Of a DNA stretch of 64,000 nucleotides, positions 14,647 through 28,436 are shown one piece after another. The stretch lies in the NCBI GenBank assembly GCA_963758525.1, contig CAVWVQ010000001.1, positions 256,001-320,000 of the forward strand. The letters run 5' to 3'. How positions within the stretch are numbered: position 1 is the stretch's first letter; each line of letters begins with the position of its first letter. The notes under the pieces are model-generated. The model was not told the origin of the DNA, made no database searches, and saw only the letters and a list, made by a program, of their open reading frames with translations. The DNA is from an uncultured Phycisphaerales bacterium (GTDB taxonomy: Bacteria > Planctomycetota > Phycisphaerae > Tepidisphaerales > Tepidisphaeraceae). Made by a program: the position numbers and the translations under genes.

Positions 14647-14674
14647 AGTATAAGTGGCACTCAGGCAATGTCAA
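14647..14674 (-). promoter_or_regulatory. Sigma70 promoter of the tRNA-Thr-tuf operon
   Basis: TTGACA-16 bp-TATACT. Confidence 0.7.
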
Positions 14675-14745
14675 TTCAGTCAGCCGGCTCATTTTAGCAC
14701 GGCCGCGCACGAATTTCCGCAGAGTGACTTCTTGCCTCCTCCCCT

Positions 14746-14888
14746 GGGTGTGGCGCTCGAAAGTGGCGATCGGCTCCGAGTAGGGCGGGATTCATCCCGC
14801 CGATTTGTTGGCCGGCTGAGAAAACGGCGGGATGAATCCCGCCCTACGATCGCAAAATCTGCAATCGCCACAAATAAAAGTTACACCC
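14746..14888. mobile_element. 143-bp MITE, copy 1 (8-bp TSD CCTCCCCT)
   Basis: Identical to 28294-28436; ends GGGTGT-N11-GTGGCGAT inverted; internal GTAG-type REP pair; flanks duplicated. Confidence 0.92.
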
Positions 14889-14998
14889 CCTCCCCTCGTA
14901 CCCGGGGGGAGGACTGAGGTGGGGGGAATCGTTCATTTGACGCGGCCCACTGAACGGACGAACCCCCACCCCAACCCTCCAGTAATAGGGGAGGGGGC
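14889..14998. repeat. REP-like palindromic element (CCCCAACCCTC...GGGAGGGG family)
   Basis: cctcccctcgtacccggggggagg...ccccaccccaaccctcc...ggggaggggg; related element at about 38509-38550. Confidence 0.6.
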
Positions 14999-15633: not shown

Positions 15634-18600
15634 CTACACGTTGGGAGTTTGCGCCTGGCGCGTGCTGAGCGATGCCTGCAGGCGCGCGAGCCAGTCTTTG
15701 TTCAAGAGCGCATAGGGCCGGAACTTCTCCATGGTGCCCTGTTCTTCGCTGTAAGCAAGGGCGCGGTAGGCGCCGAGCTTGTTGCCGGCGGGGCTGTCGA
15801 TCAGGGCGCCCGAATCGTTGGCACTCATCTGGAACAGCACGCGGTGATCGAACTCGCGCATGATGCCGCGCTCGAATGTCCGGTCGATCGACACCGGCGT
15901 ATCGACCCAGATCAGGACATGCATCCCGTAAGTCGGGCCTTCGCGAATCACGTCGCTGAAAATTTTGTCTGGCGCGGCGGGCTTGTCGGGATCGGCGGCA
16001 GAGAAGCTGAAACCTGCGTCTTCGGTCTTTCGTAGAACGCGATAGCGCTGCAGCCCGTAGACGATTACGAAAACAAACGGGGCGGCGGTGAGGCCTTCAT
16101 CCTGCCGGCGCTTCAGTTCGACGCCAAGCTCGTTCATCGCTTCCCCGGCAAGGCGATACTCTACAAGCTTTATCTGGTGCGGCAGGGCTTCCTTCACTTT
16201 GGCGAAGACCTGCGCCAGCGGGGAATCAGCGGGGGTTCCATCAAAGATGACGAAACTTGCGGCCGAGGGCGGAAGCTGCAGCGTGAGGCTTGCGATGGAC
16301 GCGGCCATCAGGGCCATCGATCCCTCTTCGGCCTGACCGACGAGCATGGCGTTGGAGCCGCTTTGACGTCGGAAGGTGAGGGCGGTGGGATCCTTGATGG
16401 CAACCGGATCGCCCAGCCACGCCAGGGGGACGTTACCGGTTGGCGGCCAGACGGGGGAGGCGATGAGGGACTCCATCACGCGATTTTTGGTGATGTCGGC
16501 CGGGGCGTTTCCTTCGAAGACCAGCGGCTCGGGCTGCGAGACGCCCGCCTTTTTCGAAAGAGCCTGCACCTTGTCGAGGTAGCTATCCTTCTTTTCATCG
16601 GAGAGATAGGCGATTTGAAAAGGACTGTTGTTTTCGACGAGCCCGCCGGCGTCGTTGTAGATCGCTTCGCCGGGACGCGTGAGAAGCCGCGCGGCGGAGT
16701 TGTTGTCGCCGAGAATCAGTTGCGAGTCGGCTTCGGAGAGCTGCAGCGCGATGCGAACCGCCATCTGCCCCAGCGTGCTGCGGGAGAGCCCGCCCGCGCC
16801 GCCGATGGTTTGCGATCCGAGCAGGACGTGCATTCCGAAGGCACGGCCCTGCCGCACCAGGCGTTCGATGAGCAGATTCGAATCCTGCGAGAGCTTGTCA
16901 TCTTCGGAGAAGAATTCCTGGAATTCGTCCACCATCAGCAGCGTTCGCGGCATTTTTTCGGAGTCGGGTGTCTTGCGATAGGAGCTGAGGTCCTGCACTC
17001 CGGCTTTGCGAAAAAGATTGCCGCGGCGAGTCAGTTCCGCGTCGAGGCGCTGCAGCACGCTGATGCCAAACTCGCGGTCGCTCTCCACGGCGATCACCCG
17101 CGCATGGGGCAGTTCGTGGGTGGCGTACGTTTTGAACTCGACGCCCTTCTTGAAGTCGATCAGGTAAAACTCGACCTCGTCGGGGTTGTACCACATCGCG
17201 AGGTTGGTGATCATCGCGTGCAGCAGCGTTGATTTGCCCGAGCCGGTCTTGCCCGCGATCAGCGCGTGCTGGGCGACGCCTTTGCCCAGGCGAAGCATCT
17301 GCAGGCGGGTTGCGCCCATGCGCCCGATGGGAACCCGCAGCTCGTCGCGGGTGCTGAGCGTCCAGAATTCCTCGGGCTTGGGCGCGATGGTCTCAAACGC
17401 GAGCTCGACGCGCTTCGATTCCTTGGCGAGCTTGCCCACTTCATTGAGGATCTTGGTGAGAAACTCTTCGCTGGGGGGCGGATCGAGCGTCAGCGGGAAC
17501 TGGCTGAAGACCTCGTCCTTCCAGATAAACCGCGCCGGCGTTCCCGCCGGCGCCTCCGGCGCTTGGGCGCCTCGACGATGCTGATGCTCCGCGACTCCAC
17601 GTCGTCCATGTGCGTCCCGGCGGGCAATGCCACGCGCATGTCGCGCATCATGAGGATGAAGACGCCGCAGCGGGCCCCGCTGCTGGCGATGCTGTTGAGC
17701 CGGCGATAACTCTCCCCCTCGAACCGCACGGGAAAATCCGCGATCACCAGATACCGATACGGCTCGGCAAGCTCGCCGGCCTGCGCGTTGTATTCGTCGA
17801 TCGTTTCGTATTCGTTTCGCAGGTATTTCTGAATGACCGTTTCCATGTGCTCGGTCAGATCGCCCAGCCGCTGCTCGATCTGCTCGGCATCGGTCCAGAT
17901 GCGGGTGCCGACCAGCGCCTCGTCGTAATCGGCAAGATGCATGAAGCCCGCGAAATTTTCGCCCAGCCCCACAGGATCGATGATGGTGAACTGCACGCGA
18001 CCCGGCGGCACCGTGGTCAGCAGGCGCACCATCACCATCTGCAGCGCCCGCACGGCTTCGTCACGCCCGCCGCGCGATGCTTCGATCAGCAGCGATGCGT
18101 GATTGGGATACGTGAGCAGCGCCGGCAGAATGAACGACTCGGGCAGCGGCAGCGTGAACTGCGAATCGCGCGGCAACGTGTCGATGATCTTCTTCGGATC
18201 GACGTGCAGTTCGCCAAAGCGGACGGCCGGAGGAAAAAGCCTGGGGGCTTTCCAGTTTTGCCAGATCCGATCGTCCCAGCCGGGAAAGCTGGGCGTGCCT
18301 TGCGATTCACCCATGGGGGCGTTGATGCGCGTCAGGCCCTGCGACCACTTCTCTTCCAAAGCTTTGCGAGCATCGGCGAATTGCTGCTGCGACTTGCAGA
18401 CCTGCTCGTCATACCTGGCCTTGTGCGCCGCGATTTCCTGCCGCTGGCGCTCGGCAAGATCGGCGGTTTCCTGCTCGATGGTCTTGCGCGCCTCGGCGCG
18501 GGCCCGTTGGATGTTCCCGCTGATTCGGGCAAGCTTCGCCTGCACCTGCGAATCAATCGACGCGATGTCCGCCGCCCGCTGCTTTTCCGTGTTCGCCAAA

Positions 18601-19605
18601 ACCGGGGCAATCTTCTCCTTGGCTTTGGCGACCTCGGCATTGCGCTTTTGCGTGGCCTCTTCGAGGTTCCGGCTCTGCTCGGCGTTGATCCGCTCGAGCC
18701 GCAAGGCGGCGGCCTTCTGGGCGACCGCCTTGGCATTGAGAAATTCCAGATATGTTTTGCGCGACTGCTTGCTCCCAAGCGAGAACATGAGAAATCCGAG
18801 TATCGCGCCCAGGACGATCGCGATGGCAATTGCCGTACACGCCCCGGTGATGTCGTCGTAGAGATATCCGCCGATCCCGGCAAGGACCAGGAACAACCCC
18901 AGCGCGAGGTAGGGCCACGCACCGACGAAAAAGCTCGGCAGTGTTAGCTTGCGCAAATCCGCAACATATTGCTCGGTGACTACCGCCGCGTGCGTGAATA
19001 CCGTTTCCACATCCCCCGGCACCGGCGGGTCAACTTCCGGGGCCTCGGGAACCTTGTGGTGGTATCGTTCCAGCAGCGCCTCGGGCGCGACTTTCCATCT
19101 CCGCGAGCGTGTCCAGGAGCTTGTCGTTCTCCGCCTTGGCCTTCTTCAGATTGGCCTTGACCTGATTCTGGCTGACCTCGAAAACGCTGTCAGCCAGCCA
19201 GATGTCCTGGTTGAGCTTTTCCTTGATCTTGCGGACGATCGGATCGTGACCCGCCTGCACTTTCTGACGGGAGTTCTCCTCCGCATTCCGCAGCGCCGCG
19301 GAGTCTGACTGGTGCTTTGCCTCGACCGCGCCGAGGCTGGCCTGATGCTGCTGCGCAAGCTCGCTGGTTTCTGCCTGCTGACGCTGCTGGATCTGGTTGA
19401 GGCCCTTGTCGAACTGTCTTTTGGCAGTCTCCAGCTCGGTCTGACGCCGGCGAGCGATCTCCGATTCTTCCGCCGCACATTGCGTCGCCAGCTCAACCAG
19501 CTCCCGCAGCGCCTCGCGCTGGCGATCGCGATGCGTGGGGGCTTCGCCTTCCGGAGAGCCGTTGGTTTCCATTTCATTGCGAACTTGAGTCGTCATGTTC
19601 ATCAT
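15634..19605 (-). CDS. FtsK/SpoIIIE (EccC/EssC-like) ATPase, about 1320 aa, split by two frameshifts (~19083, ~17565)
   Basis: Coiled coil, two TM helices, coiled coil, degenerate ATPase domain (IIDPVGLGENF), intact ATPase domain (GKTGSGKS, LIDFKKGVEF, LLMVDEFQ, RQGRAFGMH), third degenerate domain. Confidence 0.9.
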
Positions 19606-19826
19606 CCTGCGTCGTCGCTGCAGTCCCGCCGCACGGTGGTCAGGATCTGGGCCATCGTGTCCATCGCGGAAGTGGCGGCGCGAACATCCATTTCCAACGC
19701 GACCAGAAATCGCTTCTCAAAATTCTGACTCACCGAATCGTCCCAATCCCCCTTGGTTTCCGCCCAGCACGCCAACAGCTCTTTCGTGGCCTTGGCAAGT
19801 TGCCCGCGTCCTTCGTAAACACCCAT
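19602..19826 (-). CDS. Small WXG100-like helical protein (WDD motif)
   Basis: 74 aa, helix-W-x-D-helix; overlaps the FtsK start. Confidence 0.7.
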   Translation of the reverse strand: MGVYEGRGQLAKATKELLACWAETKGDWDDSVSQNFEKRFLVALEMDVRAATSAMDTMAQILTTVRRDCSDDAG

Positions 19827-19915
19827 GAGACACCGTCCTCACTCGTTCATCTTTGTGGTGCGGGCTTCCAGCCTGCATCAGGGACTAGCAGGCAGAAAGC
19901 CTCCATCATAAATAC

Positions 19916-21061
19916 TCATTGCCCGCCGGGAGAAGGAACCAGAACTTGAGCATGGGCCGCCTCCCCGGAAGTTGTGCCCTCGGCCGTGGGCGCGGCGCTA
20001 TCGGTCGCTTGCGCCGGCGCTGCTCCCGCCGGCGCGGCCGGCTTCCAAAGGTCCTCGTCGCGCGGGCCGAGGACGGCGACCACGCCGCCTCCGTCGAGCA
20101 CCACGAGAAATCCCTTTGGGAAAGCGAGCACGTCGGCAAGGTCGGGCCGTGGCGTAAGCAAATCCGACACGTTTAAACCGCCGCCGGCCGCAAAAATCCC
20201 ATCATCGGCGCGGCCCAGATACCAGCCGCTGTCTCCCGGAAACGCGATATCGAGTCGTTCGAGATAAATCCGGCTGGCAGTGTCGAGGTCCTTCGCCACC
20301 ACAATCTTGGCCTGCGGATCGGCAGGAGTTACTTCCGTCGACAGCTTGCGCAGTGAGTCCAGCTCAACGTTGGACAGACGCGCAGCCCGCAGTTGCACGG
20401 CCGAAGGATTGGAAGACGCGGCGCTGCGGCCCGCGCCGTCGGGAGTGCGGGAGCGCAGATGTGCCCATTGGCTGCGCCCTGCGCCGGCGTCGCCGCCGCC
20501 GCGAGACATCGACAGCTCGGCGCCGATGGCCGAACTCACGAGCCTTTCGCTGTCACCGACGCCCGCGACGCTCGGCGCGGAGACCGCGGCATACGCCTCG
20601 AGCATCGCGATGATCCGGCTCAACTGCGCCCCGGCCGTCGGCACTTCCGATTGCAGCGCCGTCGCAAGCCGTTGCGCCTGGCCCTTGTAGAGCAGAATGT
20701 CCTTGGGAAGCTTGCGGCTGTGCGACATCACCAGCTTGCATTTTTCCTCCCCCTGCGCGAGCCGCCTCAAGGCAACCACCAACGCCTTCTCTTCGTCCAC
20801 CGCCGATCCCGGGCGTCCGTCGGCGCCCTTGAAAAGCTTCTTCATCCGCACGGCTTCCTTGGCGCGCGTGACCTCTTCCTGCCGCTTGCGCATCTGAAAC
20901 GTCCAGTAGCTTTGCTGATCGCGCTCGAGCCATCCCATAATGCGCGACATCTCCCCCTCGGCGTCGGCCAGCGCCACGTCCGCCGTCTCGGCAAATTTAT
21001 AGAGTGCTGTCCGAAATGCCCGAAGGGCATCAAACGAACCCACTTTCGCGCCAACGGCCAT
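19916..21061 (-). CDS. Helical-bundle protein with C-terminal Imm33/DUF2185-like domain
   Basis: N-terminal ~160 aa helical region ending LEAY; C-terminal GDSGWYLG...RPDLADVLAFPKGF. Confidence 0.7.
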   Translation of the reverse strand: MAVGAKVGSFDALRAFRTALYKFAETADVALADAEGEMSRIMGWLERDQQSYWTFQMRKRQEEVTRAKEAVRMKKLFKGADGRPGSAVDEEKALVVALRRLAQGEEKCKLVMSHSRKLPKDILLYKGQAQRLATALQSEVPTAGAQLSRIIAMLEAYAAVSAPSVAGVGDSERLVSSAIGAELSMSRGGGDAGAGRSQWAHLRSRTPDGAGRSAASSNPSAVQLRAARLSNVELDSLRKLSTEVTPADPQAKIVVAKDLDTASRIYLERLDIAFPGDSGWYLGRADDGIFAAGGGLNVSDLLTPRPDLADVLAFPKGFLVVLDGGGVVAVLGPRDEDLWKPAAPAGAAPAQATDSAAPTAEGTTSGEAAHAQVLVPSPGGQ

Positions 21062-21069
21062 AATCTGCC

Positions 21070-21342
21070 CTACCGCTGCTTAAGGTAATCTTCGATCAAC
21101 CCGGCCTTCTTGGCGAGGCTTGACGCATGCTGGTGCGACGCCTCGATAAAGGTCCCCAGAGTCTTCATCGTCTGGTCGAAGAACTCGGAAAACTTCCGCT
21201 GCTCCTGGTCGCGCCATGTGCTCTCGAGCGAGCGCATGCGGGAGTTGAGCCCGCCGACCAGCGACTGCAACTCGGTGTTGAAACGATTCAGATCCTGCGC
21301 GAAACGCCGAAGCTCCGCCGGATCGACATGCGCTTTGCCCAT
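21070..21342 (-). CDS. WXG100/ESAT-6-like protein (WRD motif)
   Basis: 90 aa; VDPAELRRFA...WRDQEQRKF...IEDYL; GGAG RBS. Confidence 0.88.
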   Translation of the reverse strand: MGKAHVDPAELRRFAQDLNRFNTELQSLVGGLNSRMRSLESTWRDQEQRKFSEFFDQTMKTLGTFIEASHQHASSLAKKAGLIEDYLKQR

Positions 21343-21398: not shown

Positions 21399-21426
21399 AG
21401 TATACCCATGCAGGCTCGCTTGCGAA
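21399..21426 (-). promoter_or_regulatory. Possible promoter of the WXG100 operon
   Basis: TTCGCA-16 bp-TATACT on the minus strand. Confidence 0.35.
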
Positions 21427-21728: not shown

Positions 21729-22696
21729 ATGACCCAGGGGCCCCAGCCGAGCGAATTGCTTGCACTTGACGGCATCTACGTTGCGTTTCCGAATCTGGTG
21801 GCCGTGCGGAATGTGTCATTCGCTCTGCATGGGGGCGAACTGCTGGGATTGATTGGCGCCAACGGGGCGGGCAAGACGACGCTGCTGCGTGCCGCTGCGG
21901 CGATTCAGCCGGTCGCGCGCGGAGCGGTCCGCGTTCTCGGCGAGCGTCTGGTCACCGCCGACAGCGAATTGCGACATCACCTGGGTTTCACGCCCGACAC
22001 CCCGCCGCTGTACGAGGCGCTGACCGTGCGCGATTTCCTCATGTTCATCGCCATGGGGTACAACCTCTCCACCGCCGAGGCGAACGAACGGATCGACTTC
22101 TGGCTGGAAAAAGTCTGGCTCACGGAGAAGGCGGGGCAGAAGATTTCCGGACTGTCGCGCGGCATGCGCCAACGCGTCGGGCTGGCGCGCACCCTACTCC
22201 CCAATCCGCACGTCGTTCTGCTCGACGAGCCGGCGGCGGGACTCGATCCGGCCGGTCGCGTGCAATTCCGCGAATTGCTCCGCACGCTGCGCGAGCAGGG
22301 CAAGGCAATTATCGTTTCTTCGCACATTCTTTCGGACATGGCCGAGTATTGCACGCATATCGCGATCATGGCGAAGGGGTCGCTGGTGCAGTACGGGACC
22401 ATCAGTGAAATTACCGGCGCGCTCACGGCCGACAGCGGCGCGCGACGGCGTCGATATTTCCTTCAGCTTGCCTGTGGCGCGCCCGGGCGCGGGATATTTT
22501 GGCGGCGATGGAGGGCGTGGATCAAATCGACGCCAATCATCAATCGATCAGCTTTGACTTCAGCGCCGAGCCCCCGAAAGCGGCGGCGCTGCTGGGGCAA
22601 TTGATTGCCAGGGGGATGCCGATCGCGGCGTTCGCGCCTGCGTCGCATGATCTGGAAGCCGCGTATCTGCGAGCCGGCGTCGCACAGGTGGATTGA
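21729..22696 (+). CDS. ABC transporter ATP-binding protein (frameshift ~22485)
   Basis: GANGAGKTT, LSRGMRQR and LLDEP motifs; C-terminus continues in ORF 22499-22696. Confidence 0.9.
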
Positions 22697-22714
22697 TCAG
22701 TCCGGGAGGTGTCC

Positions 22715-24166: not shown

Positions 24167-24249
24167 AGGTCCTTAGGTATATTCCGCCCGCGTCCCAATC
24201 CCGCTAAGCATTGGCCCCCGGCACTCTCCGATCGTATATTCCCCCACCT

Positions 24250-25343
24250 ATGGCACTGGAAGTCGGTATCGTCGGACTGCCCAACGTGGGCAAAAGCACC
24301 ATCTTTAACGCGCTCACCGCGGCCGGTGCGCTGGCGGCAAATTATCCGTTTGCAACCATCGAGCCCAACGTCGGCGTCGTGCCCGTCCCGGATGCACGAT
24401 TGAGCATCATCAACGAATTTCAGAAAACAGAGAAGATCATCCCGGCCGCGCTGCGCGTGGTGGATATTGCCGGCATCGTCCGCGGCGCCAGCACCGGGGA
24501 AGGACTGGGCAACAAGTTTCTCTCCCACATTCGCGAGGTCGATGCCGTTCTGCATGTCGTGCGCTGCTTCGCCGGCGGCGACGTCATTCATGTGGAAGGT
24601 TCCGTCGAGCCGATCCGCGACATCGAAACGATTGACACGGAGCTGATGCTCGCCGATCTGGAAACGGTGGAATCATCGCTGGATAAAGTGATCCGGCTCG
24701 CCAAGAGCGGAGACAAGGACGCGATCGTTCGCGCCGATATTCTCAAGCGGCGCAGTCGAGCCTCAATGCCGGCACGCCCGTTCGCGAACTCGAATTTTCT
24801 CCTGAAGAACGAAAGCTGCTTCGGCCGTTGGGTCTGATCACGGCAAAGAAAGTGCTGTACGTGGCGAATGTCGACGAGACAGATCTTCACGGTCAGGGGC
24901 CGCTCGTCGCCGCGGTCCGCGAACGAGCCGCCAAGGAAGGCGGCGGCGTGGTCCCGGTCTGCGGCAAGCTCGAGAGCGAGCTGGCCGAGCTGGACGCCGC
25001 CGATCGCGCCGAGATGCTCTCCAGCATGGGGCTGACGGAGCCCGCGCTGGCGGCGCTGGCCCGGGAGGCGTACCGCCTTCTCGGTTTGCACAGCTATTTC
25101 ACCGCCGGCCCCAAGGAAATCCGCGCCTGGACCATTCCGATCGGCGCCACCGCGCCGCAAGCCGCCGGCGTCATCCACACCGATTTTGAGCGCGGGTTCA
25201 TCCGCGCCGAAATCTACACGCTCGACGATCTGCGGCAATACAAGACCGAGGCGGCGATCAAAGCCGCCGGGAAGCTGCGGGCGGAAGGGAAGAGCTATGT
25301 GATGAAGGACGGGGATATCACGCATTTCCTTTTCAATGTCTGA
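24250..25343 (+). CDS. ychF: Ribosome-binding ATPase YchF (frameshift ~24755)
   Basis: [33 protein letters not shown] and [13 protein letters not shown] motifs. Confidence 0.96.
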
Positions 25344-28004: not shown

Positions 28005-28215
28005 CCACAGGCCGGTCTTCTGGCTCAGGGAGGTGGTCTGCGTTTTCTCAACGCCGACCGTCGCCAGCCGCCTTCCGAAAAGGCCCTGTCCCAACGGACA
28101 AAGGCCAAATCGTGGCGTCTGACTGGCTCAAACCTCTCCATTACAGCGGCGCGTCCGCGGCGGAATTTCACCGCCTTCCCATCACAAGGTCTGCCTTTAA
28201 ACAGACCCCGAAGGC
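28005..28215 (-). promoter_or_regulatory. Cobalamin riboswitch
   Basis: GGGAAGGCGGTGAAATTCCGCCGCGGACGCGCCGCTGTAA...GCCAC...GGAAGG...AGCCAGAAGACCGGCC (B12 box). Confidence 0.92.
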
Positions 28216-28293
28216 TTCGCAGCCGCCCGAGGGCATCGGTACAGTAGCTATGTCGATTCGGATTGCAATCAAACGAAGATTCGAGTCCGTCCC

Positions 28294-28436
28294 GGGTGTG
28301 GCGCTCGAAAGTGGCGATCGGCTCCGAGTAGGGCGGGATTCATCCCGCCGATTTGTTGGCCGGCTGAGAAAACGGCGGGATGAATCCCGCCCTACGATCG
28401 CAAAATCTGCAATCGCCACAAATAAAAGTTACACCC
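28294..28436. mobile_element. 143-bp MITE, copy 2 (8-bp TSD TCCGTCCC)
   Basis: Identical to 14746-14888 but with a different 8-bp target duplication. Confidence 0.92.

Follow-up and report, generated by a model that had tools for sequence, protein, structure and literature searches.

Can a WXG100 protein and an EccC-like ATPase work together in a cell with an outer membrane, when the other type VII secretion system (T7SS) subunits are missing? This question is raised by a gene cassette in a planctomycete. The cassette lies in a stretch of 64,000 nucleotides (the window) from an uncultured Phycisphaerales bacterium (assembly GCA_963758525.1, contig CAVWVQ010000001.1, positions 256,001 to 320,000). 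Behind it stands the open question of whether Gram-negative WXG100-FtsK loci export anything (PMC10765036; statements on this and other papers refer to the sections cited). An earlier note, made from the letters of the window, described an operon of this kind. Our analysis supports a minimal WXG100 and EccC-like set in a diderm planctomycete. By analogy with known systems, and with about even confidence, we read this module as a toxin-free, T7SS-like exporter of a predicted helical bundle of the proteins A, B and C.

The cassette and its EccC-like ATPase

Open reading frame (ORF) calls in the window place four co-oriented genes on the minus strand, in the order A, B, C and ATPase, as the note had claimed (A, B and C of 90, 381 and 74 amino acids; ATPase at 19602-15634). 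The genome holds one copy of each. A TonB-dependent receptor is encoded near the cassette, in agreement with the BtuB-like receptor proposed before. Hence, the host has an outer membrane. The features are listed below; G001 is a same-genus relative with an intact ATPase.

21070..21342, minus strand: gene A, a WXG100 protein of 90 amino acids with W-R-D replacing W-x-G (PF06013, 48 bits)
19916..21061, minus strand: gene B, 381 amino acids; helical carrier (residues ~1-165), low-complexity linker and Imm33-like domain (residues 237-330) (alignments, PF24719)
19602..19826, minus strand: gene C, 74 amino acids, likely a shortened WXG100 paralogue with W-x6-W-x-D (W-D-D) (weak cross-matches)
19080..19602, minus strand: ATPase, first piece; N-terminal long helix, ~155 residues in the G001 model (tblastn of intact relatives, AlphaFold)
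17563..19080, minus strand: ATPase, second piece, past the first frameshift; two-helix membrane hairpin, second long helix and degenerate FtsK-fold domain D0
15634..17563, minus strand: ATPase, third piece, past the second frameshift; active domain D1 (GKTGSGKS, LMVDEF) and degenerate D2 (PF01580, 104 bits; best match EccC D1)
21399..21426, minus strand: sigma-70-like promoter match 5' of gene A, by consensus match only

For the promoter match, the region holds 2 such sites and shuffled sequences 0.8 +/- 0.9, which is not above chance.

Gene A is the WXG100 protein that had been proposed. In hidden Markov model searches it scored 48 bits with PF06013 (cut-off 27.3). The score for TIGR03930 was under the cut-off (39.9 bits compared to 44.85). 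The best sequence matches in the Protein Data Bank (PDB) were 3fx7 (E 3.5e-11) and 2gts (E 1.5e-10), both HP0062 of Helicobacter pylori, which is the closest solved structure to gene A. The motif is W-R-D, not W-x-G, with the D invariant across 63 aligned rows; HP0062 likewise has WRD. Gene C had no Pfam match. The top three PDB matches of its profile were EsxA twice and 4lws, all weak (E 0.09-0.17). The same profile reached gene A of three genomes (E 2e-5 to 3e-4), and direct alignment of C with A by hhalign was weak (probability 7%). From these sequence matches, gene C is likely to encode a shortened WXG100 paralogue.

The ATPase was described in the note as a protein of ~1320 residues with two transmembrane segments and three FtsK-like domains, only the middle one having intact Walker motifs. 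The segments, domains and motifs stand; the single ORF does not, since the gene occupies three frames. Exactly one GxxGxGK[ST] motif was found per relative, always in the middle domain (70 of 70 aligned relatives). Walker B residues DE were invariant in the same 70, and the first and third domains had no Walker A motif. Two hydrophobic peaks near the N-terminus were seen in 77 of 81 full-length relatives and one peak in the other 4. AlphaFold models of the G001 protein (mean pLDDT 86.5 and 92.8) predict a 156-residue helix, a membrane hairpin and a 185-residue helix containing the second membrane segment, followed by three RecA/FtsK-fold domains. At 0.15 nm per residue, the predicted flanking helices would span ~23-25 nm. 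They may pair in antiparallel fashion, as suggested by weak matches (pTM 0.62). The note had not mentioned these long helices. The predicted N-terminus is one long helix, with no FHA domains.

By sequence, EccC (4nh0, E 1e-36) ranked ahead of FtsK (9e-13). Ranking by fold gave the same order (EccC/EssC, E 7e-33; FtsK, 3e-16). Thus, the ATPase is placed nearer to EccC/EssC than to FtsK, and its linkage to the small genes is tight. The active middle domain aligned best with EccC ATPase 1 (4nh0 residues 302-492), and the whole N-terminal model aligned along its length with YukB (9qks), ESX-3 (6umm) and EccC5 (7np7) at Z ~12. Conversely, equivalog scores were far below cut-off: the intact G001 protein reached 125 bits for EccC (TIGR03924, cut-off 509), and the ATPase 88 bits for EssC (TIGR03928, 778) and 30.5 bits for FtsK (NF007615, 1566). 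For EssC and EccC, PMC10765036 gives four domains (D0-D3). Because the active domain corresponds to EccC ATPase 1, the cassette ATPase resembles EccC minus one domain. The note had set the active middle domain apart from EccC, where the first ATPase domain is the active one. This contrast falls away: the active domain matches EccC D1, and EccC also opens with a degenerate domain. The best fold matches of D0 itself were domains of TcpA, FtsK and EccC (Z 18-19), whereas the EccC5 DUF domain gave Z 12.8. Hence, the equivalence of D0 with EccC D0 is only positional.

The three frames of the ATPase gene meet at ~19,080 and ~17,563. Related proteins that share 88-89% identity with the last piece are unbroken, at 1316-1324 amino acids. 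Intact relatives span the whole gene at 71-88% identity, and the aligned pieces contain no premature stop. When long ORFs of relatives were compared with the genome at 170 loci, 25 of these showed a change of frame (two rows being this ATPase), or ~0.44 per 1000 codons genome-wide; this rough count may include antisense shadows. For a gene of this length, ~0.6 frameshifts are expected. One 151-nucleotide short-read contig carried no substitutions and was missing one base at 19082; this is a single contig of depth 2.3. Two DNA read runs contained 5-7% of words, and the second break lay outside their coverage. In the same window, ychF is split into two ORFs (24211-25343). Taken together, the two frameshifts are likely to be assembly errors, judging by these comparisons. 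The alternative, that the ATPase is a real pseudogene here and the module is decaying, draws on two frameshifts falling in one gene, the second covered by no read or contig. Against it stand the genome-wide frequency of such breaks, the stop-free pieces that match intact relatives all along and the contig with one base fewer at the first break. We consider decay very improbable.

Other frame changes were observed. An ABC ATPase gene adjoining the cassette (21729-22700) changes frame and, with ychF, fits the assembly indel rate. The module ATPase is also split in other long-contig metagenome-assembled genomes (MAGs; L028, L056, L060, L081 and L125). The breaks there differ in position from those of the window, as would fit indels from sequencing but not recoding at a conserved site. 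Just past the second frameshift lies a hairpin of 9 bp (17532-17553), perfect and all-GC, within a loop whose length differs among relatives. Programmed frameshifting at this hairpin (17553-17532) was rejected; close relatives are in frame.

Distribution and inheritance of the module

We searched an even sample of 301 Planctomycetota genomes with profiles of A, D0, B and C. All four matched the same 39 genomes; B and C each added two partial matches, weaker than E 1e-4. The synteny that the note had wanted checked is present: genes A and ATPase are adjacent in 25 of the 39 genomes. They are unlinked in 13, all of one family (f18), and the linkage could not be assigned in one. In f18 the operon is broken up in 13 of 14 module-bearing genomes, in several arrangements, with all four genes kept. 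Three of these genomes are single contigs; in one (G157), the genes lie at 0.71, 2.66, 1.94 and 0.24 Mb. Closer to the window, 20 of 23 same-family genomes gave a strong ATPase match, as did 2 of 16 further genomes from the class. All four genes were in order in 12 of 18 fetched regions; three of the remaining six end at contig edges and three hold the ATPase alone (genome G004 was left out of both counts).

At least 550 stretches of the genome collection encode ATPase relatives. The best named relatives among the matches listed are mostly Tepidisphaerales and other Phycisphaerae. Two are cultured: the full set of four occurs in Fontivita pretiosa, and the ATPase in Humisphaera borealis. An ATPase tree (FastTree) largely follows family labels and unites the 13 f18 rows with scattered genes in a single clade (support 100). 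Long outgroup branches leave the deep nodes of this tree unsure, and kin are not independent. In PMC3482391 related systems are called 'mobile versions of T7SS'. Mobility as used there was not apparent in Planctomycetota, where the module is single-copy with a taxonomy-like tree and varying neighbours; distant relatives do occur on plasmids. No fifth neighbour was conserved across 20 clustered loci; unlinked partners, such as an outer-membrane channel, were not sought. On these sequence data, the module here is a vertically inherited, obligate four-part unit and not mobile.

One MAG titled Bacillota (L051) has an ATPase that the tree nests among those of Tepidisphaerales; the contig may be mis-binned, or the label wrong. 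Matches in phage collections were nearly all of the single-domain FtsK kind, with one longer match in each. An IMG/VR contig called viral (L245, 4100-9535) encodes an anchorless 1249-residue ATPase of the family, preceded by a 442-residue helical carrier with a possible toxin-like tail and by a 77-residue gene product.

We also searched the host genome, which is 91% complete, for further T7SS subunits, scoring matches against profile cut-offs. There was no match over cut-off for EccB, EccD, EssB/YukC, EsaA or EssA, and the best mycosin (MycP) match reached 50.7 bits (cut-off 278.75); the controls for all of these were detected. The EccE profile was silent for the genome and for its controls alike. 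At these cut-offs, the genome search thus agrees with the note, which had recognised no EccB, EccD, MycP, EssA, EssB or EsaA near the cassette; for EccE the search says nothing either way. One EsaB/YukD-like match over cut-off was found, on contig C3. Such genes occur in 31 of the 301 genomes: 10 of the 39 with the module and 21 without it. Hence, the YukD-like gene was rejected as a fifth component, since it does not co-occur with the module. It encodes 89 residues with a C-terminal glycine (G000 C3:2133970-2139231, L333), upstream of genes that by eye resemble FHA- and E2-type genes. It probably sits in a bacterial ubiquitin-like operon unrelated to the module.

The carrier protein and armed relatives

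Gene B is conserved in alignments over its first 165 residues, the start of which resembles gene A (hhalign probability 25%). Its tail is an Imm33-like domain, absent from the earlier description, that scores 38.4 bits with PF24719 (cut-off 27) and is the sole match to that family in the genome. Among the predicted immunity families of PMC3482391, Imm33 is assigned to HNH-type nucleases. Pfam and alignments detected no toxin or nuclease domain in gene B, and its profile had no meaningful match in the PDB. No cognate nuclease toxin gene lies in the cassette next to the Imm33-like tail. In the loci examined, no stand-alone copy of this tail was found behind a toxin-bearing B.

The tail varies. 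Of 90 matches to B in genome loci (duplicate records included), 53 have a short low-complexity tail and 37 are long; 11 of 13 long proteins scanned passed the Imm33-like cut-off. On the tree, 34 of 80 scored rows have the Imm33-like tail, all of them within a Phycisphaerae-dominated clade. Among 40 metagenome homologues, 26 were short, 10 were Imm33-tailed, one was an overlap artefact and three had other tails. Two of these three have PD-(D/E)xK-like tails (B-profile E 2.9e-39 and 1.7e-28) and one has an HExxH tail (E 4.5e-8); the motifs were recognised by eye, and Pfam backed one of them weakly. A search for longer forms of B gave Imm33 tails in 12 of 12 cases, the window's own included, all being candidates that share most words with it. 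We infer from sequence that B is an empty cargo carrier, which may have lost a toxin and become fused to an immunity domain. The Imm33-like tail would be a dispensable relic or an accessory.

The same ATPase family has anchorless members (E 4e-81 to 8e-120), with the gene order WXG, carrier, small gene, ~77-residue protein and ATPase. A Helicobacter plasmid carries genes for WXG, a WHH nuclease carrier, SMI1/KNR4, a 77-residue protein and an ATPase of the family (E 4e-81). This cassette differs from that of the window in its 823-residue anchorless ATPase, its nuclease and its SMI1/KNR4 gene. A Caballeronia plasmid cassette lies inside a VWA/CARF/PP2C/kinase locus, and a metagenome locus (L176) has another WHH nuclease carrier. 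The window's Imm33-like domain occupies the position of the immunity gene in such armed cassettes.

A second, divergent planctomycete cassette (L131, G302:C3:228000-247900) comprises an ATPase, two WXG genes, a carrier, C, VWA and DnaJ-TPR genes. Upstream are PLD and sigma-54-type ATPase genes, and the locus resembles the armed, conflict-island form. A ParB-like tail on the second carrier of this genome was seen by eye only and set aside, as Pfam gave nothing.

The family has been noted computationally since 2012. The earlier note was right that WXG100-like genes had been noticed in other phyla, and Gram-negative WXG100-FtsK loci are functionally unconfirmed according to PMC10765036; the architecture itself is, however, already recorded. 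Footnote 6 to Table 1 of PMC3482391 describes a solo WXG gene together with an ATPase that has three HerA/FtsK domains and activity in the middle one only, and names planctomycetes. The systems in that footnote share the ATPase and the stand-alone WXG gene with our module; neither genes B and C nor a long stalk nor the Imm33-like tail is mentioned in it. The systems there are termed mobile, whereas the planctomycete module has a single copy, agrees with taxonomy and persists where the operon has broken up. The anchorless, nuclease-bearing form is described in PMC11090510. This CoCoNuT/TerY-P EssC-like form shares with the window the ATPase family (E 8e-120), central-only activity, a coiled coil at the N-terminus, a pair of WXG100-type proteins and a helical carrier. 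It has no membrane helices, a D-ExK nuclease on the carrier and a small gene behind, and it sits in defence loci. Conversely, the window has a membrane hairpin, no nuclease in B and no VWA-flanked or conserved neighbours. HP0062 and HP0066 of H. pylori have been named a 'WXG100 secretion system', HP0062-HP0066 (PMC4978471).

The closest functional comparison is with T7SSa and T7SSb. Their ATPases, EccC and EssC/YukB, share the membrane hairpin, a stalk, a degenerate first domain and an active D1-like domain with that of the window. LXG-Lap systems also share a WXG100 partner and a helical carrier with two small helical partners. The window ATPase differs in having three and not four domains, a far longer predicted stalk and no FHA domains. 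The module differs in that EccB, EccD, MycP, EssA, EssB and EsaA were not found, in its W-x-D motif and in its host with a TonB-type outer membrane. The new T7SS subtypes treated in PMC11217815 (sections cited) are from Gram-positive phyla only. The module stands outside T7SSa and T7SSb, although it likely works as their core does. A full-text literature search, which did not cover subscription papers and supplements, returned no experimental study of the family and no mention of a toxin-free, Imm33-tailed or scattered form. The inherited toxin-free form, the strict retention of four genes and the immunity-like tail appear to be new here.

Function of the module

How might the four proteins work? 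LXG toxins and two small helical Lap partners make a three-part export signal (PMC10801868). By analogy, the N-terminal domain of B would join A and C in a targeting rod of three parts, comparable to LXG-Lap-Lap. The ATPase would have an EccC-like topology, with membrane hairpin, a stalk of ~23-25 nm, degenerate D0, active D1 and degenerate D2, and would form a hexamer. D2 would read the substrate and D1 would hydrolyse ATP. The ATPase would bind the A-B-C rod and, using D1, move it across the inner membrane. The exit would be the periplasm, because no outer-membrane partner travels with the genes. Since B carries an immunity-like domain in place of the toxin-like domains of relatives, a toxin-free export or stress machine is likely.

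Several points weigh against the export reading. EccE aside, the genome search detected none of the accessory membrane subunits of T7SSa or T7SSb. The modelled D0 is closer to intact FtsK-type domains than to the EccC5 DUF domain, so its match to EccC D0 is one of position. Toxin-bearing relatives from Caballeronia, Deinococcus and Helicobacter have no membrane hairpin; the family is thus apparently able to work without its own membrane anchor. Similarity of B to the carriers of this anchorless class is weak (E 2e-5 and 2e-4 at two loci, 0.3 for Caballeronia and 1.0 for Helicobacter), and their equivalence is mainly positional. The predicted stalk of ~24 nm would keep the ATPase well away from the membrane. 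Nor is a useful cargo evident, given that a toxin is lacking and that B is encoded once, and one would expect the cytoplasm to be the place of action of an anti-nuclease domain. The history of that domain is of little help: the tree shows 10 changes in an unrooted count, from which gain and loss are not separable. Finally, Gram-negative WXG100-FtsK loci have not been functionally confirmed (PMC10765036).

Three other functions were weighed. The ATPase might remodel or dismantle the A-B-C bundle inside the cell, with no export, as a cytoplasmic sentinel of conflict or stress. Armed relatives would then free a nuclease for abortive defence, and the toxin-free form would be a membrane-tethered sensor or trap, its Imm33-like tail catching nuclease toxins. 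The anchorless relatives fit this picture: they are found in CoCoNuT-type defence loci (PMC11090510), with a nuclease-like carrier and a small downstream gene. Proteins that have the tail conserve it well (11 of 13 tested long forms of B over the Pfam cut-off), and the distribution is patchy (39 of 301 genomes). However, the planctomycete module has no effector and no conserved neighbour over the 20 clustered loci, PADLOC yields only generic ATPase or coiled-coil matches, and the tail is absent in 46 of 80 scored relatives. Most defence systems do not follow taxonomy as single copies, as this module does. We regard a sentinel as unlikely.

Alternatively, the long paired helices and small hairpins could be an ATP-recycled scaffold that shapes the inner membrane. 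Such a role would suit the predicted 156- and 185-residue helices beside the membrane hairpin, the absence of a toxin and the retention of all four genes after operon break-up. A weak resemblance in fold to the stalks of chemoreceptors and dynein (Z 9-10) points the same way, but is within background for helical proteins. In addition, homologues of B are cargo carriers, and the module was not found in 262 of the 301 planctomycete genomes searched. A scaffold is quite improbable. Least credible, and highly improbable in our view, is a DNA translocase or conjugative coupling protein of FtsK/HerA type with the small genes as unrelated neighbours. Automatic annotation does name the ATPase 'DNA segregation ATPase FtsK/SpoIIIE', and TcpA and FtsK are the best fold matches of D0. 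Yet EccC ranks above FtsK, the FtsK equivalog score is a small fraction of its cut-off, the genome has a separate FtsK-like match on contig C3 and the ATPase co-occurs exactly with three small helical genes.

We therefore retain toxin-free export as the preferred reading. Only tentatively do we propose a history for it: a polymorphic toxin-delivery cassette may have been domesticated in Planctomycetota, losing its toxin and becoming an obligate, vertically inherited machine of four proteins that outlasted the break-up of its operon, with a former immunity domain fused to the empty carrier in Phycisphaerae. If so, among type VII-like apparatuses this one would be the smallest, and the first in a diderm of the LPS (lipopolysaccharide) type, with a motor ~24 nm below the membrane. 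It would show WXG100 and EccC action without accessory subunits or toxins. The module offers a four-protein test system in cultured hosts that are not pathogens, with natural contrasts between anchored and anchorless ATPases and between armed, empty and immunity-tailed carriers. Should it export, type VII-like transport needs no more than one EccC-like protein; should it not, there is a second use of the WXG/EccC pair outside secretion.

One further observation concerns the window outside the cassette. A near-identical stretch of ~150 bases occurs twice between genes, in opposite orientations (14654-14917 and ~28168-28420), and gives matching spurious translations. It is possibly a dispersed REP-like element.

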